From Nitrospirota bacterium (GTDB lineage Bacteria; Nitrospirota; UBA9217), in the NCBI GenBank assembly GCA_963749655.1, contig CAVVOB010000023.1, forward strand, positions 79,819-143,818: a stretch of 64,000 nucleotides of DNA. Direction: 5' to 3'. Under the pieces are notes generated by a model. The model saw nothing but the letters and a program-made list of their open reading frames with translations, did no database searches and was not told the origin of the DNA. Every line of letters begins with the position of its first letter. The stretch's first letter is position 1. Shown here one piece after another: positions 41,103 through 60,418 of this stretch. Made by a program: the position numbers and the translations under genes.

Positions 41103-41560
41103 TCAGTGGTTGTCAAAGTCATTGTATTTTGCCTTGGTCCGCATGGCGGCGCAGATTTCCAGAAGAGCCTGCCTGTTTGCATCAGCTTCGGCAATAAACC
41201 GGACATCCATTTCACGAATAGCAGCACGAGCCTTGGTAAACGCCTTGAAAAATTGCGGTTGGGTCAAAAGATCGTTGCGGGAGTCCGCCTCTTATAGGAG
41301 GCTTTCATTTTGCCTGTTTTGTGACGGGCAAGCAGGAAGGCGAACGTCGCCTGGTTATGATTTATTGCGGGTATGGTACTGAAGACGCTTGCGCAATTGT
41401 TCGTTCGTCCGACATAGAGATACTTCTGGTTCTGCGAGAACAGGTAGACTCCCTTCGCAGGCATTGCTTTCGGTAACGCACCTACTTTGTACGTGCGGAC
41501 GTTCAAGAGCGCTGAACATTTCTTTTCTACCGCTGCGATGGCTTTCGTAAAAGAATCCAT
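41103..41560 (-). CDS. GIY-YIG nuclease-family protein (frameshifted)
   Basis: KGVYLFSQNQKYLYVGRTN.LRKRL..H; continues in another frame to ...QALLEI..AMRTKAKYNDFDNH*; start abuts the hsdM stop. Confidence 0.75.
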
Positions 41561-43160
41561 TTATCCCCTCTCTGTGCCGCTGCGCGAGGACAGATCGGCA
41601 GTTATTTCCCTGAACTGCTCCAACGCCGCTTCCAGGTCTTCCACGATCTCCTGGGCGATCACGTCGGGATCGGGGAGGTTGTCGGAGGCTTCGAGGGATT
41701 CGTCCTTGAGCCAGAAGATGTCGAGGCTGGCCTTGTCGCGGCTTACGAGTTCATCATAGTTATATGACCGCCAGCGGCCTTCATTTTTAACTTCCTCTCC
41801 CCTCGTGGGAGAGGACTGAGGTGAGGGGGACTTTTGCTTCTTCTTTCCCTTCTCCGTCATTCCGGCCCCCGAGCCGGAATCCAGTTGCAACCTTCCAGGT
41901 AGCCTTACGATGATGCCGATTCTCGGGATTGTAGCATTTCACAAACTCGTCGAGGTCGGAGCGCTGGAGGGAGCTTCGTCTTGAGCGTGAAGTGCATGTT
42001 CGTGCGGAGGTCGTAGATCCAGAGCTTCTTGGTCCAGGGCGTTTCGCTTGCCGGCTTTTTGTCGAAGAACAGCACGTTCGCCTTCACACCCTGGGCGTAG
42101 AACAGGCCCGTGGGCAGGCGCAGGAGCGTATGCACGTCGCACTCGTGCAGGAGCTTTCGTCCTGACCGTCTCCCCTGCCCCGCCTTCGAACAGGACGTTA
42201 TCCGGCACGACAACTGCCGCGCGGCCGTTCTGTTTTAAAAGGGTCTTTACATGCTGGATGAAGTTGAGCTGTTTGTTCGATGTCGTGGCCCAGAAGTCCT
42301 CGCGCTCGATGATATCGGTCTCCCGTGATACCTTGCCGTTCTCGGCAACGATGGTGGTGCTGCTCTTCTTGCCGAAGGGAGGATTGGTCAGTACGATATC
42401 GAACCGGTCTCCCGGGTCGGCGGCAAGAGAGTCCGAAACGATGATAGGAAGGTCCTTGTCGGTCCCGATGCTGTGGAGCATCAGGTTCATGGCGCAGAGC
42501 CGGGCCGTGCTCTGGACCAGTTCCCAGCCCTTGAAGGTCGAGCCTTTGAGCTTGCGCTTCTCGTCGGCGCTCATGTTCGGATTGTGCTTTACCACGTAAT
42601 CGTGCGCGGCCAGGAGAAACCCGCCGGTCCCGCACGCAGGATCGCAGAGCGGTCTCTTTCGGCTTCGGCTGGATCACGTCAACCATGGCCTGGATCAAAG
42701 GACGGGGAGTGAAGTACTGGCCTGCGCCGGACTTGGTATCCTGTGCGTTCTTCTCCAGGAGGCCTTCGTATGCGTCCCCTTTTACATCAGCGCTCATCAC
42801 CGACCAGTTTTCCTTATCGATCAGGTCGACGACAAGACGTCGTAATTTCGAAGGGTCCTGGAACTTGTTCTGGGATTTGTTGAAGATCAGGCCGAGCAGA
42901 CCTTTTTCATTGCCCAGGCTTTCGAGCATGTGGCGGTAGTGGTCGAACAGATCGTCGCCGTCCTTCTTTAAGAGCGTGGGCCAGTTGTACTTCGCAGGCA
43001 CGGCACTCGGCTGATTGTACGGCGGCTTCGTGCGCTCGTCGGCCATCTTGAGGAACAGCAGGTACGTAAGCTGCTCCACGTAGTCGCCGTAGCTCATCCC
43101 ATCGTCCCGGAGGACGTTACAGTAGTTCCAGAGTTTTGAAACGATTGCGGCAGGTGTCAT
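41561..43160 (-). CDS. hsdM: Type I R-M DNA methyltransferase HsdM (several frameshifts; REP-derived insert near the C-terminus)
   Basis: GQYFTPR, DPACGTGGF (across a frameshift), NPPF, LRLPTGLFYAQGVKANVLFF, SLDIFWLKD. Confidence 0.9.
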
Positions 43161-43193
43161 TGATAATTCCTTTTCAGGGTCAAAGATACTCGA

Positions 43194-43517
43194 TCAAACA
43201 GCGTGTAATTCCTTGCCACGCAGGATCCTCTTGAGGAAGGCGATCCGTTTCTTCGCTTCAGACAGAAGGGTGCGGTACCGCGCCCGATCTTCCTTGAGGG
43301 CGTCATAATACTTGATATCTTTGCCGAACAGCTTGCCTTTGTACGCAAACTGCACCTTGCCCTTTTCCCGCGACATGAGGTAGCAATACTGGCGTCCCTT
43401 TACATACTTTTTTACCAGGACCCCGCGCGGAAGCGCTGCCAGGGCCTTCTCATATTCCCCCTGGGCAAGCATTGCCTTCTTGAGTTCTTCTTCCAGGACG
43501 TTCTTAATAATTTTCAT
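43194..43517 (-). CDS. Small basic protein (107 aa), DUF6788-like; candidate DNA-binding regulator
   Basis: LPRGVLVKKYVKGRQYCYLMSREKGKVQFAYKG beta-sheet pattern plus coiled coil; directly under IR-promoter module P1. Confidence 0.7.
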   Translation of the reverse strand: MKIIKNVLEEELKKAMLAQGEYEKALAALPRGVLVKKYVKGRQYCYLMSREKGKVQFAYKGKLFGKDIKYYDALKEDRARYRTLLSEAKKRIAFLKRILRGKELHAV

Positions 43518-43530
43518 AACAACCTATCCC

Positions 43531-43578
43531 GTTACCATACAGTGGCTCGATTATATGATGCTGTATGGTAACCGTCAA
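43531..43578 (-). promoter_or_regulatory. IR-promoter module P1
   Basis: GTTACCATACA-N20-TGTATGGTAAC (43531-43572); minus strand TTGACG-N17-TATAAT with the -10 box in the spacer. Confidence 0.85.
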
Positions 43579-43650
43579 GGGATCATTGAAACTCCGGCTT
43601 ACGGCAATTCAGACCGGAGCACCCGCGAATGGTTGTTCAGGATGAGTACT

Positions 43651-43998
43651 TTATCCCCAGTATATTCCGGTCGGATCGCGGTCAAGCTCTGCAAAGACAA
43701 GGTCAAGGTTCTTAACAGGCGACAGATTTTCGTCCTCATGCCATTTATTATTTCGATCACTCCAATAGAGCATCCAGGTTTGCGCTTTCGGATTATAACG
43801 GAGCTGTGCGACTGCGGATTTTGTCCATTCCGTCATAGCCGGCGTCCAGGGGACGCGATTTTCCCATATCGTCACCGAGTTGCCGCGGAACGTGTACGAA
43901 AGCCTGATCTTATCCGCGACCCGCGGCGGCACCCGCTTCGCGATAAAGGCATCCAGTTTCTTTGCGACCGAGTTTTTCGCTGCTGCGGGAAGAGGCAT
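43651..43998 (-). CDS. DUF3024-domain protein
   Basis: AQLRY......WMLYWSDRNNKWH...DPTGIYWG. Confidence 0.85.
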   Translation of the reverse strand: MPLPAAAKNSVAKKLDAFIAKRVPPRVADKIRLSYTFRGNSVTIWENRVPWTPAMTEWTKSAVAQLRYNPKAQTWMLYWSDRNNKWHEDENLSPVKNLDLVFAELDRDPTGIYWG

Positions 43999-44040
43999 CG
44001 ATACTCCTCGCTTCGTTTGCTCACCAAGTAAACCTTACCG

Positions 44041-44088
44041 GTTACCATACACGTGCGCTAATTATGTCTTCTGTATGGTAACGGGCAA
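44041..44088 (-). promoter_or_regulatory. IR-promoter module P2
   Basis: GTTACCATACA-N20-TGTATGGTAAC (44041-44082); TTGCCC-N16-CATAAT. Confidence 0.85.
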
Positions 44089-44221
44089 GAGGTGTCTGAT
44101 ACCGAGACTACGGGAGGACAGTTCATTTGCGCAACAGGTCGCCGCAGCCTGAATGATCGATGACACATGAGTCCTGAACCCCTTTGACCTCAATCTATTA
44201 TTCGCCAAGAGACCCTTACCG

Positions 44222-44269
44222 GTTACCATACACGCTCCCTAATTATGCCACCTGTATGGTAACGGCCAA
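44222..44269 (-). promoter_or_regulatory. IR-promoter module P3
   Basis: GTTACCATACA-N20-TGTATGGTAAC (44222-44263); TTGGCC-N16-CATAAT. Confidence 0.85.
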
Positions 44270-44319
44270 AGAAGTTCTGTGTTTCTGAATCTGGTGAAAC
44301 ATCCTGCAGGTTTTTGATA

Positions 44320-44602
44320 GCCCAGGCTTTCGAGCATGTGGCGGTAGTGGTCGAACAGATCGTCGCCGTCCTTCTTTAAGAGCGTCGGCCAGTTGTACTT
44401 CGCGGGCACGGCACTCGGCTGGTTGTACGGCGGCTTCGTGCGCTCGTCGGCCATCCCCCTTCTATCCCCTCTCCCTCTGGGAGAGGGCGAGGGTGAGGGT
44501 GAGGGCGGTCAGCTGCTCCACGTAGTCGCCGTAGCTCATCCCATCGTCCCGGAGGACGTTACAGTAGTTCCAGAGTTTTTGAACAATTGCGGCAGATGTC
44601 AT
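44320..44602 (-). pseudogene. hsdM: hsdM 5' fragment (allele 2) with REP insertion
   Basis: MTSAAIVQKLWNYCNVLRDDGMSYGDYVEQL-[REP]-MADERTKPP...HMLESLG; ATG overlaps the parE stop (ATGA). Confidence 0.9.
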
Positions 44603-44898
44603 GGTAGTTTCAGAAGCCTTTCACTTCGCCAGACTCGAACGATGCGCACCTTGTTTTTATCATGCCGATAAACGATGCGAAAAGGCGGGTAAATGATCTC
44701 TCGCAGATGTTCGACATTGAACTCAGGTACGACACGGCCGCTCAGCGGGTGTGCGCCCAGCCGCTCGATCTTGGCGACGATCTCTGCAATAATCCGCTTC
44801 CCCACATCAGGCACGCCTTCGCCCGAGTACCATGCCTGCATTTCTTCAAGGTCCTTGATCGCTGATGCAGCAAACGTTATCCGTGCTTGTTCAGCCAT
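44599..44898 (-). CDS. RelE/ParE-family toxin
   Basis: F..SAIKDLEE...P.SGRVVPEF....LREII..PFRIVY...VRIVRVW. Confidence 0.9.
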   Translation of the reverse strand: MAEQARITFAASAIKDLEEMQAWYSGEGVPDVGKRIIAEIVAKIERLGAHPLSGRVVPEFNVEHLREIIYPPFRIVYRHDKNKVRIVRVWRSERLLKLP

Positions 44899-44902
44899 GG
44901 GA

Positions 44903-45172
44903 TCACTTCAGACCAAGGCGTTTTTTCGCCTCGGAGAGCGAGATCTCGCGGCCTTCTTCCAGGTCCATCAGTCCCTTCACCACTCCCTGCATAAAAGCGC
45001 GCTCTTCGGTTTCTTCCTCGTAATCCTTGAGCGATCGGACCACGGCAACCCCGCGGCCCCTGCTCGTGAGCAAAATAGGCCGGTGCGTCTCTTGCGCATG
45101 GGAAACCACCTTGCCGGGGTTCACCTTCAGGTCGCTGAGAGGGACGATGTCTTCGGAAAACTTGGTACTCAT
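44903..45172 (-). CDS. Phd/YefM-family antitoxin
   Basis: DIVPLSDLK...RPILLTSRGRGVAVV.SL.DYE. Confidence 0.9.
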   Translation of the reverse strand: MSTKFSEDIVPLSDLKVNPGKVVSHAQETHRPILLTSRGRGVAVVRSLKDYEEETEERAFMQGVVKGLMDLEEGREISLSEAKKRLGLK

Positions 45173-45253
45173 AGTAGACCTCCTTAATGGTACTCTTAAC
45201 AGGTCTTATTATAGCACTTATAGACAGGTCTGTATATAGTAGCGCTCCCTTCG

Positions 45254-46188
45254 TAGGGTCAGGTCCATACTCTTTACCTTTTATAGTGACCGCACAGAAT
45301 TCTGCTTACATAGGTGGAATGCACACCGAGGTGATCCGCAATTGAACGCTGCGTGTATCCGTACTTCTCGACAGCCTCGGCGATTTTCTTGTCCCGCTTT
45401 CCCTTTGTCGTCCAGTATACTCTGACTGAATATTTTTTCAAGTGGCGGCCTGTTGGCGTAACGCTGGCTCTTGGGTATCTCGGGAATGTCTTTATGCCTT
45501 CTGAGATGATCGGCCAGGCTGTCGACAAAATCATCTTCGCCGAGAAGTGCCTGGCCTTTAACCTCGTTCCAGATGGTTTCCTTACCGATCCCCCATTTTA
45601 CAAATTGGCGATACTCTTTCTCTGCCTTGGCTCTTGTTCGGCTGAATTGTCCGAGTATCCAGTCCGTGGTAAGACACGGGTGAGCCGTATCCTTCCCCGC
45701 CCGTGGCCCGATAGCTTGACCATCTCCAGTCTTCGGGCTTTTCCACCATCCTGGCGCGGACCGGATTAAGGACCACATAGCGGCAGACTTCAAGCAGGTG
45801 TGTGTCCTTTTGAATGAGGATGGCCTTGTACCTGCCCTGAAAAAGGTGGCCGGTCTTGTTGTAGCGCTTGTTACGCGCCTGAGTATAAACACCGTTTAAC
45901 TGTCTCATGCCGAGGGAAAGGTTTCCATCCGGCGTTTCTATCATGAGGTGGTAATGATTGTCCATGAGGCAGTAGGCGTGACAGAGCCAGTGATAGCGTT
46001 TATTGACGAAGGCGAGGATCTTGAGAAATGTCTCCCGATCCTGGTCGTCTTTGAACACGGCTTTTTTATCGTTGCCGCGGTTGGTTATGTGATATACCGC
46101 ACCGGGGTATTCTATGCGGAGAGGGCGTGCCATGAAGGGAGTCTATCAGAAGTTAAAGCAAAAGTCCAACAGTATGGACCTGACCCTA
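45254..46188 (-). mobile_element. TIR-flanked HUH/Y1 transposase element no. 3 (CDS about 45274-46133, frameshifted)
   Basis: MARPLRIEYPGAVYHIT.RGN, CLMDNHYH, LNPVRA, WSSY; perfect 18-bp TIRs TAGGGTCAGGTCCATACT (45254-45271) and AGTATGGACCTGACCCTA (46171-46188). Confidence 0.88.
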
Positions 46189-46237
46189 AGATGTTCAAAA
46201 ACCTACAACTTGGTGATGCATCACAATCCCGCAAAGT

Positions 46238-47160
46238 GTCAGGTCTTTTATTTTGGCGTTACGCCTTTCCCCTCACCAGATTGCTGATTGTTGAATAATG
46301 CATATTCAGATGAGCGGCTATCTGCTGCTGAGTATAACCATATTTCTGCACGGCATCAATGATCTTCTTATCTCGTTTTTTCTTGTCCAGTATCACATTT
46401 TTCAGGAATATCTTGTCGAGAGACGGCCTATTCACATACCGATGACTCTTGGGTATTTCAGGAATGTCCTGATGTTTCCTGATATGGGAGATCAGCCCTT
46501 CCACAAAATCGTCTTCGCCCAGGATGGACTGTCCCTTCACCTCTCTCCAGATTGTCTCCTTGCCGATCCCCCATTCGACGAATTGCCGGTATTTCTGCTC
46601 TGCCGTGATCCTCTTCCGGCTGAATTGTCCGAGAATCCAATCCGTGGTCAGGCACAACGCCGGTGATTCGCGGCCTGCTGTCGCGAGGTAGCTGGACCAT
46701 TTCCAGGCTTCCGGTCGTTCTACCATGCGTGCCCGAACAGGGTTTAATACCACATACCGGCATACTTCGAGAAGATGGCTGTCTTTCTGAATAAGAATCG
46801 CTTTGTATCGGCCCTGGAACAGATGGCCAGTCCTTTGATGACGTTTATTGAAAAGCTGTGTATAGACCCCGTTCAACTGACGCATTCCGAGGGAGAGATT
46901 GCCGTCTGGCGTCTCGATCAGCAGATGATAGTGGTTGTCCATCATGCAGTAGACATGACAGACCCAATTGTATCGCTTATTAACGTGCAGGAGTGTGTTC
47001 AGGAAGTTGATGCGGTCCTGGTCGTCTTTGAAAACGGCCTTCTTTTCATTTCCGCGGGAGGTGATGTGATAGACGGCACCGGCGTATTCTATGCGGAGGG
47101 GGCGGGTCATGCGGCGACAGTATCACAGGAAGGAGAGAATGTCAAAATAAAAGACCTGAC
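46238..47160 (-). mobile_element. TIR-flanked HUH/Y1 transposase element no. 2 (intact CDS 46259-47110)
   Basis: 283-aa RAYT-like protein with C-terminal HTH; 18-bp TIRs GTCAGGTCTTTTATTTTG (46238-46255) and CAAAATAAAAGACCTGAC (47143-47160). Confidence 0.9.
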
Positions 47161-47304
47161 CCTATAGGTTCGATTGCGGCAGGGGGTAACAGTTTAGCCC
47201 TTTTTGACTTTTATTGAGATGCAGTCCGCAATTTATTTGACTTGCGGGCTTTTTTAGGGCAACATATATGAGTATTTATACTCATATATGCAGGAGGCAG
47301 ACTT

Positions 47305-47583
47305 ATGAAACGAATCGATCTCTTGAGGAAACAGCGGGTTCGGATCAGGGAAGACATTGGGGCAATGCTCGACAGTTTCCTGATTGGCACCGTCGCCAAA
47401 TCCCCTTCCATGTCCGGGCACAACCTGACTACCAAGGTGGAGGGAAAAACCGTTACGCTGTATGTCCGGAAGGACATCGCCCCCATGGCAACAGAGATGA
47501 GTTTGCGGTACACGAAGCTCTGGAACCTCATGCAGAAGCTTTCCAAGGTCAACTGGGAAATTCTGAGCATGGAGAACAAATAG
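47305..47583 (+). CDS. IS accessory protein (92 aa, DUF6788-like)
   Basis: AGGAGG RBS; HNLTTKVEGKTVTLYV pattern; stop 2 bp before the transposase start. Confidence 0.75.
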   Translation: MKRIDLLRKQRVRIREDIGAMLDSFLIGTVAKSPSMSGHNLTTKVEGKTVTLYVRKDIAPMATEMSLRYTKLWNLMQKLSKVNWEILSMENK

Positions 47584-47585
47584 GC

Positions 47586-49130
47586 ATGCCGCGATATCCG
47601 TGGCCGCCTCACGATTTTGCCTGCCTTTATGAGCACACTTGCCCGTATCTTGACGGGTTGTCCACGAAGTGGGTGTTGGGACAGTATCGAAGCCTGGATG
47701 ACGACCGGTTGGAGTATCTCCACCTCATCGATATCTACCGTAAGGAGGTGCGGGAGCGGGATGACCGGATACGGGTCCTGGAGCGGGAGCATGCGGAACT
47801 TCGAGCCAAATATCAGGCCTTGCACCGTAAGCAGTTCAAGCCGAACAGAAAACGGGATGAGAACAGCGGAGGGGAAGAGGGTTCATCGTCAGCCTGCGCG
47901 CAAAAGAAGAAACGCGGGGCGCCTGTGGGACATCCGGGGTGGACAAGGCCGGTCCCGTCGCGGATCGATCGGACTATTCCGGTGCCCGCCCCGGCTGTTT
48001 GTCCTCACTGCGGGTCGCATGACTTGACACTTGAGGGTTCAATACATGAGCACATTCAGGAGGACATCGTCGTAAAACCCACGACTACGGTTACGAAATA
48101 TGTGCATGAGGAGGCGTTCTGCCCGCGCTGCAACCGGGCGGTCGTGGGGGCCGGTCAGGACGAGATCCCCAACGCCGCCATCGGGCCGCTTGCCAAGTCC
48201 ACGGCCGGGTATCTGCGTTATGAAATCGGCATTTCCTACCGGAAGGTGCGGCAGATCCTCTCTGACTTGTTCGGGCTTTCCTGCGTGCCGGCCTCGCTCG
48301 TGGGTTTTGACAACAAGGCCGCCAAACGGGGGGCGGCCATTTACGAGGATGTCCGCGAAAAGATCAGGGCTTCGGACGTGGTGCATGCCGACGAGACCTC
48401 CTGGAGAAATGACGGTAAAGGGCATTTTGTATGGTTCGCGGGCAATAACGATCTTGCGTTCTTCCATATTGACAGGCATCGGTCACAGGATGCGGCGAAG
48501 ACCGTTTTCGGAAAGGCTTTTGACGGAGTTCTGATTCGCGACCGCTATGCGGCCTACAACGGCATTGGTCTCGACTGGCAGGCGTGTCTGGCGCACATCA
48601 TAACCAACGCCAAGGACATCCGCCGGGAGCATGCGCTCCTGCCGACGCGTGAGCAGGATAACGCCGTCACCCGTTTCTGCGACCAGGTCGCCAACTTCTG
48701 CGCGCGGGCATGTGAGGCAGGGCAGAAACTGAAATCCGGCGAGAGCCCCTGGGAGCATGCGGCGAACATCGAAAAGTGTTTCATCACCGAGCTGAAGGGA
48801 ATCTGCAAAAGGCCGCTCTCGTTCAAACCAGCCGAGACCCTGAGGAGTTTCCTCGTCGGCCCCGAGCAGGTACATCTCTTCACCTTCCTGCGTATCCCCG
48901 GCGTCCCGCCCACGAACAATCATGCGGAACAATCCCTGCGAAAGATGGTGATCATGAGGAAGGTCAGCTTCGGCACCCGTTCGGACAACGGACTCAAAAC
49001 CCACAGCGTCATCCCTACGCTTGTGCAGACCGCGAAAAGACAAGGCGTCCATCCACGTGAATTTCTGCACATTCTCCATACTGCCGATGCCGCGACGGCG
49101 CAAGCCGCGCTGTATAACAATTCAAGTTGA
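47586..49130 (+). CDS. IS66 transposase TnpC
   Basis: Coiled coil, KRGAP.GHPG, CPHCG zinc finger, HADET, DRYAAY, QACLAH, TNNHAEQSLR. Confidence 0.95.
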   Translation: MPRYPWPPHDFACLYEHTCPYLDGLSTKWVLGQYRSLDDDRLEYLHLIDIYRKEVRERDDRIRVLEREHAELRAKYQALHRKQFKPNRKRDENSGGEEGSSSACAQKKKRGAPVGHPGWTRPVPSRIDRTIPVPAPAVCPHCGSHDLTLEGSIHEHIQEDIVVKPTTTVTKYVHEEAFCPRCNRAVVGAGQDEIPNAAIGPLAKSTAGYLRYEIGISYRKVRQILSDLFGLSCVPASLVGFDNKAAKRGAAIYEDVREKIRASDVVHADETSWRNDGKGHFVWFAGNNDLAFFHIDRHRSQDAAKTVFGKAFDGVLIRDRYAAYNGIGLDWQACLAHIITNAKDIRREHALLPTREQDNAVTRFCDQVANFCARACEAGQKLKSGESPWEHAANIEKCFITELKGICKRPLSFKPAETLRSFLVGPEQVHLFTFLRIPGVPPTNNHAEQSLRKMVIMRKVSFGTRSDNGLKTHSVIPTLVQTAKRQGVHPREFLHILHTADAATAQAALYNNSS

Positions 49131-49385
49131 AAAGAAAACCATCGGAGCATACAATAGTGGCGTGAAGACTTCCAACCTTGGATAATCAGGTCAGAGAGGG
49201 ACGCTTTGTCCTTTCGGCAGGTCGACATCTTTTGGGAGTAAAAAGGGCTAAACTGTTACCGGCAGGGTAACAGTTTAGCCCTTTTTGACTTTTATTGAGA
49301 TGCAGTCCGCAATTTATTTGACTTGCGGGCTTTTTTAGGGCAACATATATGAGTATTTATACTCATATATGCAGGAGGCAGACTT

Positions 49386-49664
49386 ATGAAACGAATCGAT
49401 CTCTTGAGGAAACAGCGGGTTCGGATCAGGGAAGACATTGGGGCAATGCTCGACAGTTTCCTGATTGGCACCGTCGCCAAATCCCCTTCCATGTCCGGGC
49501 ACAACCTGACTACCAAGGTGGAGGGAAAAACCGTTACGCTGTATGTCCGGAAGGACATCGCCCCCATGGCAACAGAGATGAGTTTGCGGTACACGAAGCT
49601 CTGGAACCTCATGCAGAAGCTTTCCAAGGTCAACTGGGAAATTCTGAGCATGGAGAACAAATAG
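49386..49664 (+). CDS. IS accessory protein (copy 2)
   Basis: Identical translation to 47305-47583. Confidence 0.75.
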   Translation: MKRIDLLRKQRVRIREDIGAMLDSFLIGTVAKSPSMSGHNLTTKVEGKTVTLYVRKDIAPMATEMSLRYTKLWNLMQKLSKVNWEILSMENK

Positions 49665-49666
49665 GC

Positions 49667-51211
49667 ATGCCGCGATATCCGTGGCCGCCTCACGATTTTG
49701 CCTGCCTTTATGAGCACACTTGCCCGTATCTTGACGGGTTGTCCACGAAGTGGGTGTTGGGACAGTATCGAAGCCTGGATGACGACCGGTTGGAGTATCT
49801 CCACCTCATCGATATCTACCGTAAGGAGGTGCGGGAGCGGGATGACCGGATACGGGTCCTGGAGCGGGAGCATGCGGAACTTCGAGCCAAATATCAGGCC
49901 TTGCACCGTAAGCAGTTCAAGCCGAACAGAAAACGGGATGAGAACAGCGGAGGGGAAGAGGGTTCATCGTCAGCCTGCGCGCAAAAGAAGAAACGCGGGG
50001 CGCCTGTGGGACATCCGGGGTGGACAAGGCCGGTCCCGTCGCGGATCGATCGGACTATTCCGGTGCCCGCCCCGGCTGTTTGTCCTCACTGCGGGTCGCA
50101 TGACTTGACACTTGAGGGTTCAATACATGAGCACATTCAGGAGGACATCGTCGTAAAACCCACGACTACGGTTACGAAATATGTGCATGAGGAGGCGTTC
50201 TGCCCGCGCTGCAACCGGGCGGTCGTGGGGGCCGGTCAGGACGAGATCCCCAACGCCGCCATCGGGCCGCTTGCCAAGTCCACGGCCGGGTATCTGCGTT
50301 ATGAAATCGGCATTTCCTACCGGAAGGTGCGGCAGATCCTCTCTGACTTGTTCGGGCTTTCCTGCGTGCCGGCCTCGCTCGTGGGTTTTGACAACAAGGC
50401 CGCCAAACGGGGGGCGGCCATTTACGAGGATGTCCGCGAAAAGATCAGGGCTTCGGACGTGGTGCATGCCGACGAGACCTCCTGGAGAAATGACGGTAAA
50501 GGGCATTTTGTATGGTTCGCGGGCAATAACGATCTTGCGTTCTTCCATATTGACAGGCATCGGTCACAGGATGCGGCGAAGACCGTTTTCGGAAAGGCTT
50601 TTGACGGAGTTCTGATTCGCGACCGCTATGCGGCCTACAACGGCATTGGTCTCGACTGGCAGGCGTGTCTGGCGCACATCATAACCAACGCCAAGGACAT
50701 CCGCCGGGAGCATGCGCTCCTGCCGACGCGTGAGCAGGATAACGCCGTCACCCGTTTCTGCGACCAGGTCGCCAACTTCTGCGCGCGGGCATGTGAGGCA
50801 GGGCAGAAACTGAAATCCGGCGAGAGCCCCTGGGAGCATGCGGCGAACATCGAAAAGTGTTTCATCACCGAGCTGAAGGGAATCTGCAAAAGGCCGCTCT
50901 CGTTCAAACCAGCCGAGACCCTGAGGAGTTTCCTCGTCGGCCCCGAGCAGGTACATCTCTTCACCTTCCTGCGTATCCCCGGCGTCCCGCCCACGAACAA
51001 TCATGCGGAACAATCCCTGCGAAAGATGGTGATCATGAGGAAGGTCAGCTTCGGCACCCGTTCGGACAACGGACTCAAAACCCACAGCGTCATCCCTACG
51101 CTTGTGCAGACCGCGAAAAGACAAGGCGTCCATCCACGTGAATTTCTGCACATTCTCCATACTGCCGATGCCGCGACGGCGCAAGCCGCGCTGTATAACA
51201 ATTCAAGTTGA
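49667..51211 (+). CDS. IS66 transposase TnpC (copy 2)
   Basis: Identical translation to copy 1. Confidence 0.93.
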   Translation: MPRYPWPPHDFACLYEHTCPYLDGLSTKWVLGQYRSLDDDRLEYLHLIDIYRKEVRERDDRIRVLEREHAELRAKYQALHRKQFKPNRKRDENSGGEEGSSSACAQKKKRGAPVGHPGWTRPVPSRIDRTIPVPAPAVCPHCGSHDLTLEGSIHEHIQEDIVVKPTTTVTKYVHEEAFCPRCNRAVVGAGQDEIPNAAIGPLAKSTAGYLRYEIGISYRKVRQILSDLFGLSCVPASLVGFDNKAAKRGAAIYEDVREKIRASDVVHADETSWRNDGKGHFVWFAGNNDLAFFHIDRHRSQDAAKTVFGKAFDGVLIRDRYAAYNGIGLDWQACLAHIITNAKDIRREHALLPTREQDNAVTRFCDQVANFCARACEAGQKLKSGESPWEHAANIEKCFITELKGICKRPLSFKPAETLRSFLVGPEQVHLFTFLRIPGVPPTNNHAEQSLRKMVIMRKVSFGTRSDNGLKTHSVIPTLVQTAKRQGVHPREFLHILHTADAATAQAALYNNSS

Positions 51212-51379
51212 AAAGAAAACCATCGGAGCATACAATAGTGGCGTGAAGACTTCCAACCTTGGATAATCAGGTCAGAGAGGGACGCTTTGTCCTTTCGGCA
51301 GGTCGACATCTTTTGGGAGTAAAAAGGGCTAAACTGTTACCGGCAGGGGTCATAAACTGATGATGCCTTTCTTTTAACC

Positions 51380-51498
51380 TTGAACTTCATTATTCACTGC
51401 TGTATATTATTTCCAAGCCGCAAGGCTGGTGGTCCATTACCTATGGTTCAGGACCGTGGCAGCGCCTCAGTCGCCGTTAAGACTGGGGCTTTTTTTAT
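51380..51498 (+). ncRNA. Candidate ~85-nt small RNA with its own promoter and terminator
   Basis: TTGAAC-N17-TATATT, then AGCC-GCAA-GGCT and GGTCC...GGACC hairpins, then the terminator GCCTCAGTC..GACTGGGGC-TTTTTTT. Confidence 0.5.
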
Positions 51499-51557
51499 TG
51501 ATTCTTTCCCCAAAGGGAGAGGGCTGGTGTAGGGAAAGAAAGTCGGAGAGGGTATTC

Positions 51558-51752
51558 TTACTTTTGTTTCTCTTCAACAACAATATCTTCCGGCTTAATC
51601 AAGACAACCTTGCCGTCACGCCACGCCGCAACGGGATTCCCGGCTTTTTTGTGCTGCAAAAGAGCCTGCTGTACGGCCTTTTTTAAAGCCTTATCGATTT
51701 CCTTGCCCTCATGGAAAAGTTCATCAATTGTTTTCTTTTCTGCAACGCTCAT
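51558..51752 (-). CDS. Small protein (64 aa), partner of the zeta-like kinase
   Basis: AVQQALLQHKKAGNPVAAWRDGKVVLI. Confidence 0.8.
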   Translation of the reverse strand: MSVAEKKTIDELFHEGKEIDKALKKAVQQALLQHKKAGNPVAAWRDGKVVLIKPEDIVVEEKQK

Positions 51753-52335
51753 ATTCTTCCACCTCTAATCAAACTCCACGTTTTTGGATCGTAAATAGTT
51801 TCGTTTGCATCTCCCCTTCCGTCGGCAACGATGCGTGGCCAGGACGGTCCGAATTATCGTATATTCGCCATGTGTCCGTCAGTGGCCGGTAGAGCCGGAA
51901 GAAGTTCTCGATACCCTTATTATACCGCCTCCGAATGGTTTCCTCAGCCACGTCATGCCCGCCCATGCGGACTCGTTCGGCCACGCGGGCAACGGCAAAA
52001 CCCGCGCTCGGAAGCCACAGGAACACCAGGTGGAAAGTATACCCGCTTTGCTTCAGTTTTGCAATCCAGGGCGCAAAGGACCTGCTCGCCAGCGTTGTCT
52101 CAAATGCGAAATCCACGCGCTCGTTGGCAAGATAATGCAGCCGCTCCAGCATGACCCGGCCTGCATGGAACGCCGCGCTCTCTGGCTGGAACGCGGAGAG
52201 CCCCAGGGCGATGACGTCGGCATTCACGAACTCCGTTACTCCCAGCGTCCCCTTGAGCAGCATCGGCGCTGTCGTCGATTTCCCGGCCCCGTTTGGTCCG
52301 GCTATGACAATGACGTGCGGATTCTTTTCTGACAT
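51749..52335 (-). CDS. Zeta-toxin/AAA_33-family P-loop protein (probable C-terminal frameshift)
   Basis: IAGPNGAGKST, FVNAD.IA, FAFETTLA, RVAERVRMGGHD; the corrected frame ends in an ATGA overlap with the next gene. Confidence 0.88.
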
Positions 52336-52402
52336 CAGTTCAACCTCTCGAAGTAAACAACATGAACAAATTCAAATCGCCCCGAACTGCCTTTACTCAT
52401 CA

Positions 52403-52450
52403 GTTACCATACAATGTCTCATATTCTGATCCCTGTATGGTAACGGCCAA
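52403..52450 (-). promoter_or_regulatory. IR-promoter module P4
   Basis: GTTACCATACA-N20-TGTATGGTAAC (52403-52444); TTGGCC-N16-CAGAAT. Confidence 0.85.
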
Positions 52451-52477
52451 GGGATGTTTGAGCGTTTTGATCTGTTT

Positions 52478-52821
52478 AGGCCGAGCAGCCTTTTTTCCAA
52501 TGACAACGTCTTTCTCCATAGCTCCTCGCCCTCGGAGGGAGAGGAATTCAAAGGTGAGGGTGAAAAGTCTTTGCCCAGGCTTTCGAGCATGTGGCGGTAG
52601 TGGTCGAAAAGATCATCGCCGTCCTTCTTTAAGAGCGTGGGCCAGTTGTACTTCGCAGGCACTGCACTCGGTTGGTTGTAAGGCGGCTTCGTACGCTCGT
52701 CTGCCATCTTGAGGAATAGTAAATAGGTCAACTGCTCCACGTAATCGCCGTAGCTCATCCCGTCGTCCCGGAGGACGTTACAGTAGTTCCAGAGTTTTGA
52801 TACGATTGCCGCTGGTGTCAT
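52478..52821 (-). pseudogene. hsdM: hsdM 5' fragment (allele 3) with REP insertion after LESLG
   Basis: Protein identical to the hsdM N-terminus up to HMLESLG but with many synonymous changes; residual EK.LLGL after the insert. Confidence 0.9.
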
Positions 52822-52853
52822 TGATAATTCCTTTAAAAGGCCAAAGATACTCG

Positions 52854-53002
52854 ATCAAACAGCGTGTAATTCCTTGCCACGCAGGATCTTCTTGAGGAAC
52901 GCGATCCGTTTCTTCGCCTCAGACAGAAGGGTGCGGTACCGCGCCCGATCTTCCTTGAGGGCGTCATAATACTTGATATCTTTGCCGAACAGCTTGCCTT
53001 TG
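52854..53002 (-). pseudogene. 3' remnant of the 107-aa gene (copy of about 43194-43342)
   Basis: Near-identical DNA; truncated ~13 bp from the TIR of the adjacent HUH element. Confidence 0.85.
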
Positions 53003-53015
53003 AACCTGCCTAAGT

Positions 53016-53937
53016 GTCAGGTCTTTTATTTTGGTGTTACGCCTTCCCTCTCACCAGATTGCTGATCGTTGAATAATGCATATTCAGATGAGCGGCTATC
53101 TGCTGCTGAGTATAACCATATTTCTGCACGGCATCAATGATCTTCTTATCTCGTTTTCTCTTGTCCAGTATCACATTTTTCGGAATATCTTGTCGAGAGA
53201 CGGTCTGTTCACATACCGATGACTCTTGGGTATTTCAGGAATGTCCTGATGTTTCCTGATATGGGAGATGAGCCCCTCCACAAAATCGTCTTCACCCAGA
53301 ATAGACTGTCCCTTTACCTCTCTCCAGATAGTCTCCTTGCCGATTCCCCATTCGACGAATTGCCGGTATTCTTGCTCGGCCTTTGCCCTCTTTCTACTGA
53401 ATTGTCCAAGGATCCAGTCCGTGGTCAGACACGGTGCTGGTGATTCCCGCCCCGCTGTGGCACGGTAGCTGGACCATTTCCAGACTTCCGGTCGTTCAAC
53501 CATCCGTGCCCGGACAGGATTTAATACCACGTACCGGCAAACTTCGAGAAGATGACTGTCTTTCTGAATAAGAATCGATTTGTATCGGCCCTGGAACAGA
53601 TGGCCAGTCCTTTGATGACGTTTATTAAAAAGCTGTGTATAGACCCCGTTCAACTGCCGCATTCCAAGTGAAAGATTGCCGTCAGGCGTCTCGATCAAGA
53701 GGTGATAATGGTTGTCCATCATGCAGTAGGCATGGCAGAGCCAGTTATACCGCTTATTGACATGCTGGAGCGTGTTCAGGAAGTTGATGCGGTCCTGGTC
53801 GTCTTTGAAGACGGCCTTCTTTTCATTGCCGCGGGAGGTGATGTGATAGACGGCACCGGCGTATTCTATGCGGAGGGGACGGGTCATGGGGGGAATTTAG
53901 CAAAGAACAGGAAGAATGTCAAATTAAAAGACCTGAC
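53016..53937 (-). mobile_element. TIR-flanked HUH/Y1 transposase element no. 1 (CDS 53037-53887, frameshift near 53180)
   Basis: Close paralog of 46259-47110; TIRs GTCAGGTCTTTTATTTTG (53016-53033) and CAAATTAAAAGACCTGAC (53920-53937). Confidence 0.9.
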
Positions 53938-54040
53938 CCTATAGACTCCCGGCGTTATTATCATAACAACTGTCGTTAATCGCCCAAGAGTTCATAAATG
54001 TTCAACCCTTTCAAAAAAGTGCGACGTTTAGCTAAATATA

Positions 54041-56038
54041 TTAGCTGCCAATCCCAAGTTTTTCAAAGAATGCCTTATGTCGTTGTTTAGCGTCCAGGAC
54101 AATCTTGTCAAACGCGATTATTTCAATATGCGCATTATGGTTACGGTTGTAATTGTAATAGCCTAATTCACCTTGAAGCTTGGCATAGTTACCATTCTCT
54201 GCAAACTCAGTAATTTGGGAGGTTATATCGCAAATGGCGTAACAGTAAAAACGGGTTGTATCGTCTACCGTGACAGGTCGACCATTAGTTTGCCATATAC
54301 CACTCTTACGAATATCCCGAACATATCTAAATAACTGTTTCGTCGGGTCCTCGTCAAATTTCTTTCTTTGTGGCTTCTTAAATTCAAGCAAAGAAACAAC
54401 TCGTGCTCGTCGGTCGTCACCCACTTCTGAGTAGATCAATATGTCGGGGCGATCTTTGCTGTTAGATGTTGTGACATCGCATAGGCGTTTGTCCGAAGCA
54501 GCACACGCATGGAACGCCAGAAGTTCGTCAACAAGCCACAGGTTGTGATTCTCATATGAAATAATATCGGTATCAGCTTTGCGGGGAAAGACGATATCAT
54601 GAACAATATCTTCCTTGCTATATTTTTTATCTTTATTAAGTTCAAGTTTTTTATCAAGCAGATCGATTATCAATTTTCGGAAAAGCACATACCCTGCCAG
54701 TTGATCTTTCTGAAAGTCTTCCAACTTACCTGTAAGTTCATCGTACTGGGATTTTATTTCATCAACACTTGTTGCTTGCGTCCTAAGAAGTTTCTCACTA
54801 TTCTTCTTTATCTCATATTCTGCTTTTCCCTTGTAGGAATATAGAACTTGAGTCATCTTTTCATCAGAGGTATTCAGTTCAATGTCTTTAAGTGCCTCCG
54901 GACAGTACTTCACAACGGCACGCAACATCGGCGATTCATTCTGGGTATACTTTGCGATTCTCTCAGCTTTCTGTGTTTCAACGAAAGTGATAACCTTCGC
55001 AAGATGATTCTTTGCGCGGCTCACAACTTCCTGCTGAATTTCATTCATTGTAATTTCTTTATTGCTGTTTGTGAGTAGATTTGGCTCAGATGGAATAGTG
55101 AACTCTTGTCGATACTCATCGACATTTTCATCTAAGAATGGTGAGGTAATGTAAGCTGAGTAGAAATATTTATCGCCGTCGTCATCAAACTGAATTGAGG
55201 TACCAAGTAAGCTGCCAATCGATATTCTTTTTACATCCCTTCCATGTGCACAATAAACAAGCTGATGTGTTTGTGCGCGAGTTCCGTAAAGACGAATATG
55301 ATGAACTGAAAATGGCTTAGATTGTATCTCAATGTGTTCGGTCGTAATGTTGCCTTTGATATCGTTGAATAAATCATGAAGGTTTATTGCGCGATCAGCG
55401 GAATCATCAATAATTTGGATTGTAGGCGCCAAATCGCTTATAAATCTTGCAAGGCAATGCTCGAATACACGCTGTGCAATTTTTGTGGATGTCTTGTACG
55501 CACTTGGCTGTTTTCTGTAATCTTCATTGAATCCAATAAGACGAACTACAGTTTGTCTCTTTTTCGCTTTTGAGATTTCAACAGGCTGCTCTTGGACGCC
55601 TTTATCAATTGAAAAAATAATATTTCTATCAGCCAGTGCACTCTCTTGGTGTTGAAAGGTGCTTGCAATTTCGACGAGATCAAATGCTTTAAGCCACAGG
55701 AACCTCCCAATGCCTTTTCCACCCTTAACAAGTTTGTATGTTGAATCTGCGGTTTGGAAGGAATCAAAATTTTCATTAGTAAAGCCGATACCATTGTCCT
55801 CGATGTCGAATCCAGTTATATTAGGTAGCGTATCATCACCCTCTAATCCAAGCGAGGTTTGGTTTAAGTCCCGCTTAACTCGAATCGTTATCAATCCCTT
55901 TGATAAGTCACCAGCCTCCTCTATTGCCTGGATAGAATTTATAACTGCTTCGAATACTGGTAGTAGTGCCTCTGATTTAAAATGTCGAAGGTTTCGAATT
56001 TTCCCTTGGAGACTGGCTTTAAGCATTACATCCGACAT
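54041..56038 (-). CDS. GHKL (HATPase_c/MORC-like) ATPase with C-terminal PD-(D/E)xK-like domain
   Basis: EAVINSIQA, IEDNGIGF, GGKGIGRF; C-terminal RPDILIY...LLEFKKP; AT-rich. Confidence 0.8.
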   Translation of the reverse strand: MSDVMLKASLQGKIRNLRHFKSEALLPVFEAVINSIQAIEEAGDLSKGLITIRVKRDLNQTSLGLEGDDTLPNITGFDIEDNGIGFTNENFDSFQTADSTYKLVKGGKGIGRFLWLKAFDLVEIASTFQHQESALADRNIIFSIDKGVQEQPVEISKAKKRQTVVRLIGFNEDYRKQPSAYKTSTKIAQRVFEHCLARFISDLAPTIQIIDDSADRAINLHDLFNDIKGNITTEHIEIQSKPFSVHHIRLYGTRAQTHQLVYCAHGRDVKRISIGSLLGTSIQFDDDGDKYFYSAYITSPFLDENVDEYRQEFTIPSEPNLLTNSNKEITMNEIQQEVVSRAKNHLAKVITFVETQKAERIAKYTQNESPMLRAVVKYCPEALKDIELNTSDEKMTQVLYSYKGKAEYEIKKNSEKLLRTQATSVDEIKSQYDELTGKLEDFQKDQLAGYVLFRKLIIDLLDKKLELNKDKKYSKEDIVHDIVFPRKADTDIISYENHNLWLVDELLAFHACAASDKRLCDVTTSNSKDRPDILIYSEVGDDRRARVVSLLEFKKPQRKKFDEDPTKQLFRYVRDIRKSGIWQTNGRPVTVDDTTRFYCYAICDITSQITEFAENGNYAKLQGELGYYNYNRNHNAHIEIIAFDKIVLDAKQRHKAFFEKLGIGS

Positions 56039-56065
56039 GATTTGACCCCCATCGATTGATTCACA

Positions 56066-57340
56066 TTAATTGCTCTGGGATAGACCACCAGAAAATGCTT
56101 TTGCTAGGATAGTCTGCCGCAGCCGCTCGGCACGTTGAACATTGACCTCAGATGTTGCTTCTACCTCCTCAGTTACACTCAAGCGTTGTTCTACCTCAGC
56201 AACGATGCGCACTTGTTCAGCAAGCGGAGGGATAGGAATAATTAATTCACGAAAACGCTTTTGCGTGAGATTCAAGCCGCTATCACTGATACCTGTCTTC
56301 AATTCATCGAGTTCGTCGACAATGTGCGGCGCATTGAGCACAAGTTCTAAGTAAGATGGGATAGCTATATCGCTTTTAGCTCGAAGTCTATAAACCTTGT
56401 CACAATTTATTAAGCGAGACCGCGTAGTCTTTACAAGACATGCGACACCGACACGTGTTCGCGGCCCAGCTCGTGTTATCAGCAAATCACCAGCGGACAG
56501 CTCAAGATGTGGACGCGGTTTCAACTTCGCGGGGAGCCGCTTATTTTCAATTTCGAGGAAGCGAAGTGACTGAACTGCCGTTGTTTTAATTACACCCCAT
56601 ACTGCGGGACTGTCGGACGGTTCATTCTCGCATCGTGGGCTCCATCCTTGATCTAGCGATTCAATAGCTACATCAATTGGCTGGTGTTTCCAGCTTTTAT
56701 AACTCTTGAGCCCATTAACGGCGGTGAGTGTGCCCTCGACTGCGGCTTTGAGAACAGCGGCTTTGTAGCGTTTAAGGTTCGCCTTGACGCGCTTGAGATT
56801 GGCGACGGCTTCGTCCAGACGGGAGAATTGCTTTTCGATCTCGGCGACGATGCTTCGTTGCTGCTCAAGAGGTGCGAGCGGTATTTGCAGCTGTGCAAGC
56901 TTCGTCCCGTTAACATTTGGTTGCCCAATACCAGCTTGGCTTTCACTAATTTGCTTCCAGTACTGAGAGGACTTGAAGAAGTAATCTATATAGCGTGATT
57001 CAATCTCAGGCTTCAATCGCACCCTGATTAAATAGGAAGCAAAGACAGACTCCGGAATCTTTTCTTTAATCAGAAAGCTTTTACCGACGGTCGCGCCAGT
57101 TCGCGCAAAAACGATGTCACCCTGTTTAAGCAAGTATTTGGATTTATCTTTAGCTTCAACCTTACAGAAAGGCACCGCATTCCAGTCAACGTTGTTGTCT
57201 TGAATATCAGTTATTCGCAGAAAACGCGGTCCGACTGGTTTCTCCGCAGCGCTCGTCGTGTAACCATATTGAATCGCAGTGGCTATATCCGCCAGTTTTA
57301 CGACGGACCATGAATTTGGCATGTTGATACTTTTGTTCAC
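56066..57340 (-). CDS. hsdS: Type I R-M specificity subunit HsdS
   Basis: Two TRDs with IPLAPLEQQRSIV / IPIPPLAEQVRIV and LKAAVEG / ILAKAFSG conserved regions. Confidence 0.95.
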   Translation of the reverse strand: MNKSINMPNSWSVVKLADIATAIQYGYTTSAAEKPVGPRFLRITDIQDNNVDWNAVPFCKVEAKDKSKYLLKQGDIVFARTGATVGKSFLIKEKIPESVFASYLIRVRLKPEIESRYIDYFFKSSQYWKQISESQAGIGQPNVNGTKLAQLQIPLAPLEQQRSIVAEIEKQFSRLDEAVANLKRVKANLKRYKAAVLKAAVEGTLTAVNGLKSYKSWKHQPIDVAIESLDQGWSPRCENEPSDSPAVWGVIKTTAVQSLRFLEIENKRLPAKLKPRPHLELSAGDLLITRAGPRTRVGVACLVKTTRSRLINCDKVYRLRAKSDIAIPSYLELVLNAPHIVDELDELKTGISDSGLNLTQKRFRELIIPIPPLAEQVRIVAEVEQRLSVTEEVEATSEVNVQRAERLRQTILAKAFSGGLSQSN

Positions 57341-60258: not shown

Positions 60259-60418
60259 TGTTAAAAGAATAGACAATAATCGAGGGAGCACGCGTTGATG
60301 ACAGGATGAGAATAGTACAGAGAAACTTAAATTGCAAGGACTTAGATGGGGTATTTTTGGGGGAGGCTTTTTAAATTGTGGATAGCGAAATTTTGATAAA
60401 GAATTCCGGAGTGGGTGC

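Follow-up and report, generated by a model that had tools for sequence, protein, structure and literature searches.

The 64,000-nucleotide (nt) stretch of Nitrospirota DNA analysed here (the window) carries a type I restriction-modification (R-M) locus in which hsdS and hsdM are held apart by a 12.9-kb interval of cargo, running from the end of hsdS at 56066 to the start of hsdM at 43160. On balance we favour the view that this is a decaying type I R-M locus that has received at least three cargo imports upstream of hsdM, that a 42-bp inverted repeat recurring between the cargo genes is the operator-promoter of a small gene, p107, and that no integrase was needed. The original prediction for this DNA had proposed that units of inverted-repeat promoter, cargo and hsdM 5′ end were stacked repeatedly, giving an integron-like capture platform. 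The stacking itself is supported, as such units recur elsewhere with different neighbours; the integron-like platform did not hold up, for reasons given below. The source assembly (G000) is a metagenome-assembled genome (MAG) of 4.27 Mb, 86.6% complete with 5.84% contamination, and the contig studied is its C23.

On the minus strand the genes follow the order Uup, hsdR, hsdS, the interval, hsdM, two fragments of open reading frames (ORFs) and DsrC, and the measured interval agrees with the separation of about 13 kb first claimed. Four hsdM starts are present, denoted A, B, C and x, and the inverted repeat (hereafter the module, copies P1 to P4) has the form GTTACCATACA-N20-TGTATGGTAAC. In the order of transcription these elements are as follows.

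52822..53001 (-): second p107 gene, 3′ remnant (aa 58-107; tblastn 94% over aa 58-107)
52569..52821 (-): hsdM stub C, nt 1 to ~253 (Pfam HsdM_N)
52497..52568 (-): hairpin element of 72 nt, similar to repetitive extragenic palindromic (REP) sequences, inside stub C; G172 and G006 have this insertion and junction too
52403..52444 (-): module P4, preceding a zeta-like gene
51341..51353 (-): hsdM stub x, the first 13 nt (ATGACCCCTGCCG)
44320..44602 (-): hsdM stub B, nt 1 to ~249; a REP-like hairpin replaces about 18 nt at 44459-44506
44222..44263 (-): module P3, not followed by any intact gene; flank 82% like that of P2
44041..44082 (-): module P2, predicted to drive a DUF3024 gene
43531..43572 (-): module P1, predicted promoter-operator of p107
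43194..43517 (-): p107 gene, 107 aa
41561..43160 (-): hsdM copy A, of full length and a pseudogene

The three long copies counted in the earlier work are real, and stub x brings the total to four. Copies A and C share a repeat of 435 nt at 93.6% identity (42907-43341 and 52568-53002), and A and B share 145 nt at 96.6% and 95 nt at 94.7%, with each stub bearing its own private insertions. As had been claimed, the truncated starts B and C are closely followed by the module. P3 begins 56 nt past the end of stub B (about 44320). The homology of stub C is lost at 52569 and P4 lies 124 nt further on, behind the hairpin, hsdM nt ~255-272 (52479-52496) and a 34-nt leader (52445-52478). Stub x is interrupted by a pair of IS66 elements, with the rest of it (CAATCG) at 47176-47171 beyond the pair, and is then ended by the inverted repeat of a REP-associated tyrosine transposase (RAYT) element. 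At stub B the start is overlapped by the stop of a parE gene. We considered whether the stubs might be selected small ORFs and rejected this, since a stop within the hairpin insert interrupts stub B.

Copy A had been taken for an intact hsdM. We found three 1-nt insertions in it (42650, 42160 and 41976), each a +1 frameshift relative to all three intact homologues compared, and a REP-like insertion around 41794-41814, and it is thus a pseudogene. Contigs from all four metagenome runs compared, which are short contigs of relatives only, have one base fewer at each of the three positions, and contigs of two runs skip 117 nt at 41776-41894, the site of the REP-like hairpin. As long genes stay open on the same contig (hsdR, 984 aa; a 778-aa ATPase; Uup, 656 aa), three assembly indels within 1.6 kb would appear unlikely. 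The locus is left with intact hsdR and hsdS and a broken hsdM, and so does not hold three intact type I genes.

The architecture recurs in related genomes. A search of 401 genomes of the phylum with the first 170 HsdM residues matched 139 of them. Among the 40 loci with HsdM N-termini at least 80% identical, at least 13 carry co-oriented N-terminal stubs, one or two apiece, 0.46-3.0 kb upstream of hsdM on the same contig (G000, G243, G096, G111, G132, G019, G032, G219, G356, G133 and G235, with two stubs each in G310 and G255). This is a lower bound, with 70 further matches standing outside the count, and the other 27 loci show no stub among the matches listed. A further case, a stub of 45 nt in G014:C20, was found by blastn, and some of the genomes with stubs consist of a single contig (G356, G202). 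In this hsdM clade the usual arrangement is hsdR-hsdS-[cargo]-hsdM, hsdR and hsdM being conserved while the cargo differs between loci. What lies between the stubs varies by genome and includes DarT-DarG, DUF6883/DUF4926 (repeated in G310), Fic, DUF3800, AbiEii-WYL, YhcG, RhuM, VapBC, Phd-PIN, DUF433/DUF5615, a Schlafen-like ATPase, a zeta-like kinase with a 64-aa partner (zeta-p64) and phd-parE. Cargo and stub also travel together across different genera and families: the phd-parE-hsdM′ unit is found in G000, G022, G251 and G159, and the zeta-p64-hsdM start unit in G000, G014, G019 and G003, in each case with different neighbours. Zeta-like homologues of 93-95% identity adjoin hsdM in G006, G014 and G019 with p64 alongside, and G003 holds a p64 fragment. 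The homologous loci bear out the earlier expectation that cargo would vary while junctions recur at hsdM 5′ ends; the modules did not follow it, being missing from the stub loci of another family (f9: G032, G310, G255, G235, G219, G133 and G356).

The stubs do not, in general, look like copies of the gene beside them. Among the 13 stubs from genomes with a fetched full gene, the genome's own full gene was the best match for only three (stub B of G000, G133 and G019); in stub B the lead is 0.1 point (96.2% against 96.1%), in G133 it extends over only 52 nt, and in G019 it is clear. For other stubs a foreign gene is closer than the resident one: 94.2% against 89.2% in G132, 91.0% against 85.7% in G219 and 90.6% against 77% in the second stub of G310. 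Copies of hsdM within one genome differ by 3-9%, similar to copies from different genomes. The closer foreign alleles, together with the recurring cargo-stub units, would suggest blocks that arrived with their own hsdM 5′ end.

The module offers a second line of evidence. It occurs four times in the whole assembly, every copy at this locus, and the reversed control pattern gives no match. Its arms are perfect 11-mers beginning GTTACCA and it sits in a constant register on the minus strand, the -35 hexamer abutting the left arm and the -10 hexamer being central. The promoter of P1 is TTGACG-17-TATAAT (11 of 12 consensus positions), those of P2 and P3 agree at 9 of 12, and P4 (-35 TTGGCC, -10 GAATAT) agrees at 8 of 12 by our own reading, the promoter scan not having listed it. 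A search of 185,579 species genomes with exact arms returned 110 stretches, and 80 loci were fetched, spanning Elusimicrobia, Planctomycetota, Omnitrophota, Nitrospirota, Desulfobacterota, Clostridia and other groups. A p107 homologue begins 7-82 nt (median 21) downstream of a module in 66 of these 80 loci, within 60 nt in 64 of them, and two tandem modules are present in 48 of the 66. The remaining 14 are without p107, and in several of these the module sits at the very border of the sequence retrieved. The gene after p107 overlaps the p107 stop and encodes 177-232 aa in 38 of the 66 loci; 12 of the 22 downstream proteins scanned are NTP_transf_8 (PF12281) nucleotidyltransferases, including all eight scanned from those 38. 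The linkage of module, p107 and this gene argues that the module serves a small operon as its promoter-operator, the operon commonly consisting of p107 and NTP_transf_8. We therefore read the 42-bp repeat as a predicted operator-promoter of p107 and not as a recombination site, and p107, from the same linkage, as the presumed repressor binding the module arms. The possibility that the module is a miniature inverted-repeat transposable element or the end of an insertion sequence was rejected, given its fixed register with the -35 and -10 hexamers and the p107 start.

p107 belongs to an unstudied and very widespread family of small proteins, with at least 1248 p107-like proteins at E ≤1e-5. Its predicted fold consists of a long helix, a three-strand sheet and a second long helix (AlphaFold2 pLDDT 88). 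Scans against Pfam, NCBIfam and PADLOC gave no significant match. PF20586 (DUF6788) is listed in a precomputed table for 118 of the 120 best p107 homologues, while hmmscan matched it weakly, in 3 of 42 members at E ≤1 (best 0.13). The NTP_transf_8 partner has no PADLOC family, and the searched literature gave no paper on NTP_transf_8/PF12281 or on DUF6788/PF20586. Among mobile replicons, p107 has no tblastn match in PLSDB plasmids and the module is found on only three IMG/VR contigs. Homodimer prediction for p107 scored 0.01 and 0.00 against a mark of 0.42, without controls, and is not used as evidence either way. An operator almost invariant across phyla makes the regulator role directly testable.

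Modules were found in 7 of 41 relatives of the source genome, itself counted, and hsdM stands beside the module in only 2 of the 80 loci, both in Nitrospirota-type MAGs, so that module and hsdM are unlinked outside this lineage. The lineage in which p107 came to lie in front of hsdM is probably Nitrospirota, and there the operator-promoter seems to have spread by copying, as a mobile promoter of cargo genes. Single modules head DUF3024 in G006, G014:C5 and G021 and DUF6933 in G003, P2 and P3 are local duplicates (82%), and in G132 a stub is followed by a module, p107, a second module, Fic and hsdM. Upstream of the modules the leaders are mosaic, combining two types. Two loci, L012 (G003:C78; 3675-6338) and L055 (2256-6117), have five co-oriented modules 159-1848 nt apart which, together with small ORFs, lie ahead of p107; neither has hsdM in the fetched stretch.

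From these observations we infer a recombination pathway. An imported block would consist of a promoter, cargo and the 5′ end of an hsdM allele. One side of the block would recombine by homology inside the highly conserved hsdM, and the other would be joined illegitimately within or just upstream of the resident hsdM 5′ end. The product would read ...hsdM′(1..k)-cargo-hsdM, each event leaving one stub, and a dedicated integrase would be unnecessary. Homology-facilitated illegitimate recombination, in which one homologous anchor and one microhomology join insert foreign DNA beside the anchor, predicts features seen here, namely short anchor-gene stubs and a mismatch between stub and resident alleles. 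It is reported to have been shown by experiment, as single events, in Acinetobacter and pneumococcus, by de Vries and Wackernagel and by Prudhomme, both in 2002, and it is not known to build ordered arrays of cargo at defence loci. An equivalent product would result if a circularised fragment were integrated by a single crossover. It is also possible that the polarity was the other way, with the anchor in hsdR/hsdS and the broken end in the donor hsdM; the age order of the units would then be reversed. Single operator-promoter copies would come to head cargo such as the zeta-like kinase and DUF3024 genes, and one repressor would co-regulate the island. Two IS66 insertions, three RAYT elements, REP-like hairpins and frameshifts would belong to the later decay of the locus, with hsdM by now dead.

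A number of observations weigh against this reading; they concern the junctions, the mobile elements, the alleles, the regulator and the read support. The stub ends, in nt of hsdM, lie at 79, 81-95, 83, 117, 126-142 (nine cases), 156, 181, 184, 185, 243-253, 267, 272 and 330. Nine ends at nt 126-142 form a cluster unlike the result of pure chance joins, and several junctions of the source locus family fall at or near nt 249-272. One breakpoint, ...GCCTGGGC| (window position 42912), has different partners in stub B, G122 and G132, and one metagenome contig joins 42912 to the region upstream of phd. In stub C, G172 and G006 a REP-like hairpin lies 4 nt from this breakpoint, at the same hsdM position. 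The assembly has three full-length RAYT copies, every one of them inside the 13-kb interval (45244-47171 and 53002-53953), and their closest relatives (at least 95%) are found beside hsdM fragments in G231:C8, G172:C199, G014:C20 and G153:C145. No genome pair was found that shows one event before and after, with its microhomology. As for p107, it has no solved DNA-binding relative (Foldseek against the PDB, best E 0.13, to prefoldin-like chains; sequence against the PDB, best E 0.23), and G006, G008 and G014 (86-97% complete) have modules, the query used having detected no p107 in them. Were p107 really missing from these three, their module promoters would be unrepressed orphans.

The junctions and mobile elements would also agree with cassettes having been captured serially and site-specifically, as in an integron, by a recombinase supplied in trans and acting at hsdM nt ~250 and/or at the 42-bp repeat or the REP-like hairpin. 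The five-module arrays would fit such a process, as would two integron-integrase-like genes elsewhere in the genome, one at G000:C29:9153-9992 (TIGR02249, 317.9 bits, over the cut-off, with one internal stop) and one at G000:C38:149610-150547, which is split in two frames. We nevertheless consider this quite unlikely. The spread of stub ends from nt 79 to nt 330 argues against a single crossover site, and the conservation of the module is explained by its predicted role before p107 in 66 of the 80 loci, with the -35 and -10 hexamers in fixed register. The module is placed 5′ of genes, bears a promoter and has perfect arms, unlike attC, and it is absent from C29 and C38, the contigs with the integrase-like genes. 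Tyrosine recombinases (PF00589) have 15 matches on other contigs and none on the whole of C23, which extends the earlier observation of no integrase in the window, and a serine recombinase (PF00239) was not found in the assembly at its 86.6% completeness. The RAYT family is multicopy at unrelated sites, with matches in 45 of 64 genomes and up to 25 in one, and RAYT-free joints are present in metagenome contigs. The f9 loci have stubs and no modules, and their scanned proteins gave no match to Y1_Tnp or an integrase.

Part of the recurrence of the 42912 breakpoint, though not all of it, is accounted for by shared descent. Stub C and G172 are alike in their hairpin insertion and in a junction at nt 272, and G122 may represent this type after a deletion between two similar short motifs. 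The clusters of stub ends are regarded as soft hot spots. In view of the concentration of RAYT elements beside hsdM, a process assisted by hairpins or HUH enzymes is retained as a lesser alternative. IS110, which the loci of G014 and G003 contain, was dropped as a candidate agent; no match to it was found among the ORFs scanned in the interval of the source genome.

The allele comparison bears on a second alternative, that the array arose purely by local rearrangement (tandem duplication, unequal crossing-over, slippage and shuffling by insertion sequences or RAYT elements) with no foreign blocks. In G019 a 24-nt insertion is common to the stub and the full gene, whose identity is 95.7% as compared with 88.4% or less to other genomes, which points to local duplication or gene conversion there. 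Stub B being marginally closest to copy A, the many mobile elements of the interval and the duplicated P3 and P2 would all sit well with such an origin. As an account of the whole array it is unlikely, since 10 of the 13 stubs have a foreign full gene as close or closer, the same pairings of cargo and stub turn up beside differing neighbours in several genera and families, and copies within a genome have diverged as far as those between genomes.

It could also be asked whether the array is an assembly artefact, strains having been joined chimerically at the repeated hsdM 5′ ends. The source is a MAG with some contamination, the repeats are 250-435 nt long, the IS66 pair is 99.9% identical, and no public run contains more than 0.19 of the sampled words. 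The same architecture is present, however, in at least 13 other independently assembled genomes, one-contig genomes among them, unit junctions are shared (B with G022, C with G172), and the stubs carry private insertions. This recurrence, with the shared junctions, makes a chimera very improbable.

A broader proposal, which we put forward only tentatively and think rather unlikely, is that hsdR-hsdS-[ ]-hsdM loci of this lineage act as a recombinase-free analogue of the integron, in which the hsdM 5′ end would serve as a universal homology arm by which blocks of promoter, cargo and hsdM′ pass from genome to genome and stack, and the p107 promoter would be portable, bringing every newly captured toxin-antitoxin or defence gene under the control of one repressor. 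In a bolder sub-variant the soft hot spots of hsdM (nt ~130 and ~250) would come from single-strand joining assisted by hairpins or by HUH (RAYT) enzymes.

The likeness to integrons is one of appearance only. Integron attC sites are imperfect palindromes with GTTRRRY/RYYYAAC cores that lie 3′ of mostly promoterless cargo, in arrays rich in toxin-antitoxin (TA) genes. The present locus shares with them co-oriented, small, TA-rich cargo units parted by a recurring, imperfectly conserved palindromic element. It differs in that no intI is adjacent, the element is a predicted 5′ promoter-operator, the GTTACCA arms do not fit the GTTRRRY core, and the junctions with the anchor gene fall at varying positions. 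In tandem accretion at one att site, at the end of a tRNA or protein gene, each element brings a replacement target end, with a site-specific integrase of its own or a borrowed one and exact att cores; direct repeats of a target end accumulate here too, but the repeats end at varying points and an integrase was not found. Insertion with long target duplication is reportedly a finding of Nobusato from 2000. In a later account, such insertions around R-M genes have direct repeats of 46-423 bp (Furuta, Abe and Kobayashi 2010; PMC2853133). Those cases resemble ours in their R-M-linked setting and in that the insertion is not accounted for by transposase or integrase. Our cargo is likewise flanked by repeats of 250-435 bp of a sequence that is single-copy in uninterrupted loci. 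Direct repeats of more than 30 bp matching a single-copy target are found here, and the insert does not hold the R and M genes. In those cases the R-M genes are the insert, whereas here the hsdM 5′ end is the repeated target and TA and defence genes are the insert. The present events also differ in being serial, a locus having as many as three stubs, and in recurring across roughly a third of one hsdM clade.

A regulatory parallel is found in RptR, a small repressor encoded by the first ORF before hsdM in a type I R-M/DarTG2 island of enteropathogenic E. coli; it is an all-helical dimer that binds TAGCTA in three direct repeats of one promoter (PMC12255303). The two loci share a small gene directly before hsdM, TA cargo in a type I R-M locus and repeated operator sites. 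p107 is unlike RptR in its predicted fold (helix, three strands, helix) and in its operator, GTTACCATACA-N20-TGTATGGTAAC, which is copied before several cargo genes.

Type I R-M loci with defence cargo inside them are already known, and so is insertion with long target duplication. Serial arrays of hsdM stubs and the spread of the p107 operator-promoter onto cargo seem undescribed in the searched literature, and supplements of papers may list further loci; among papers on truncated, partial, fragmentary or pseudogene hsdM, judged by title and the start of the abstract, none concerned stub arrays. At this locus and in its relatives a readable record of growth is kept, each addition having left a dated scar in the form of an hsdM stub. 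The locus offers a testable picture of how a bacterial defence island grows, and a conserved anchor gene with one illegitimate join could build many of the islands that are flanked by conserved genes.

The remaining features of the locus, also in the order of transcription, are the following.

57337..60291 (-): hsdR, intact, 984 aa (Pfam EcoEI_R_C, ResIII and HSDR_N; NCBIfam type I endonuclease)
56066..57340 (-): hsdS, intact, 424 aa, with a 4-nt overlap with the hsdR stop (Pfam Methylase_S in two stretches; PRK09737)
54041..56038 (-): cargo protein of 665 aa, falling in Atlas clusters that bear the name 'ATP-binding protein'; in some of these 15-23% of members have HATPase_c_3
53002..53953 (-): RAYT-type Y1 transposase element, copy 1 (ORF 53171-53887; flanking inverted repeat I5; Y1_Tnp)
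51769..52335 (-): zeta-toxin-like kinase, 188 aa (Pfam Zeta_toxin, AAA_33)
51558..51752 (-): p64, the 64-aa partner gene of the zeta-like kinase
47185..51340 (+): IS66-family tandem pair, copies 47185-49259 and 49268-51340 (DDE_Tnp_IS66)
46217..47171 (-): RAYT element, copy 2 (ORF 46259-47110)
45244..46216 (-): RAYT element, copy 3, frameshifted (ORFs 45582-46133 and 45281-45892; inverted repeat I2)
44599..45172 (-): phd-parE TA pair (Pfam), with its own promoter at 45236-45208 (promoter scan); the unit is also found in G022, G251 and G012
43651..43998 (-): DUF3024 cargo gene (Pfam; PADLOC candidate PDC-S43)
41103..41560 (-): two ORF fragments 3′ of hsdM, frameshifted by our reading

The gene list of the original prediction was essentially right, though it missed the fourth stub and the strand of IS66; most genes are co-oriented on the minus strand, as it stated, and the IS66 transposase ORFs are on the plus strand. 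Its 'TIR-HUH' genes do contain a Y1 HUH domain, and their identity is RAYT (NF047646, 90.1 and 86.4 bits against a cut-off of 80; flanking inverted repeats I2, I4 and I5). Its 'GHKL' label for the 665-aa protein rests on Atlas look-alikes, the Pfam and NCBIfam scans having no match, and on these the product is probably a GHKL-type ATP-binding protein. The ORF fragments at 41103-41560 have no match in Pfam, NCBIfam or PADLOC, so that the GIY-YIG label once given there was not confirmed, and p64 has no family match in the same three collections.

RAYT copies 1 and 2 are 91% identical, and the insertion of copy 1 cut short the older p107 gene whose remnant precedes stub C. The REP-like hairpin, CCTCTCCC-N3-6-GGGAGAGG, has 17 sites in the genome and none in the control, and lies inside all three long hsdM copies (41794-41814, 44468-44486 and 52497-52568). 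The IS66 copies (Pfam E = 1.7e-29) match over 2091 nt at 99.9% and have the ends GTAACAGTTTAGCCC; the 8-bp target duplication CCCTGCCG is present three times, at 47177, 49260 and 51341. The tandem could come from a second hit at the same target, from unequal crossing-over or from duplication by the assembler.

In relatives, cargo lying beyond the full hsdM is also followed by fragments of the hsdM 3′ end, in L044 (G012:C431; 338-463), L018 (G006:C101; 5300-5362) and L162 (G096:C28; 9734-9826), so that cargo accretes on the 3′ side as well, with the same type of scar. A GC-rich insert of 24-96 nt (type CCCTTCG...CAGGACAGGC) is present at hsdM nt 81 in L042 (G019:C15), L162 (G096:C28), L160, L165 and L166; it occurs in several stubs and in the full gene of G019 (24 nt, in frame), and has the look of another small repeat element, one whose target is fixed. 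Finally, the gene order hsdR-hsdS-hsdM, with hsdM last, is unusual among type I systems and common to the whole clade at 80% identity or more; a 50%-identical system in G024 has the gapless order hsdR-hsdM-hsdS.

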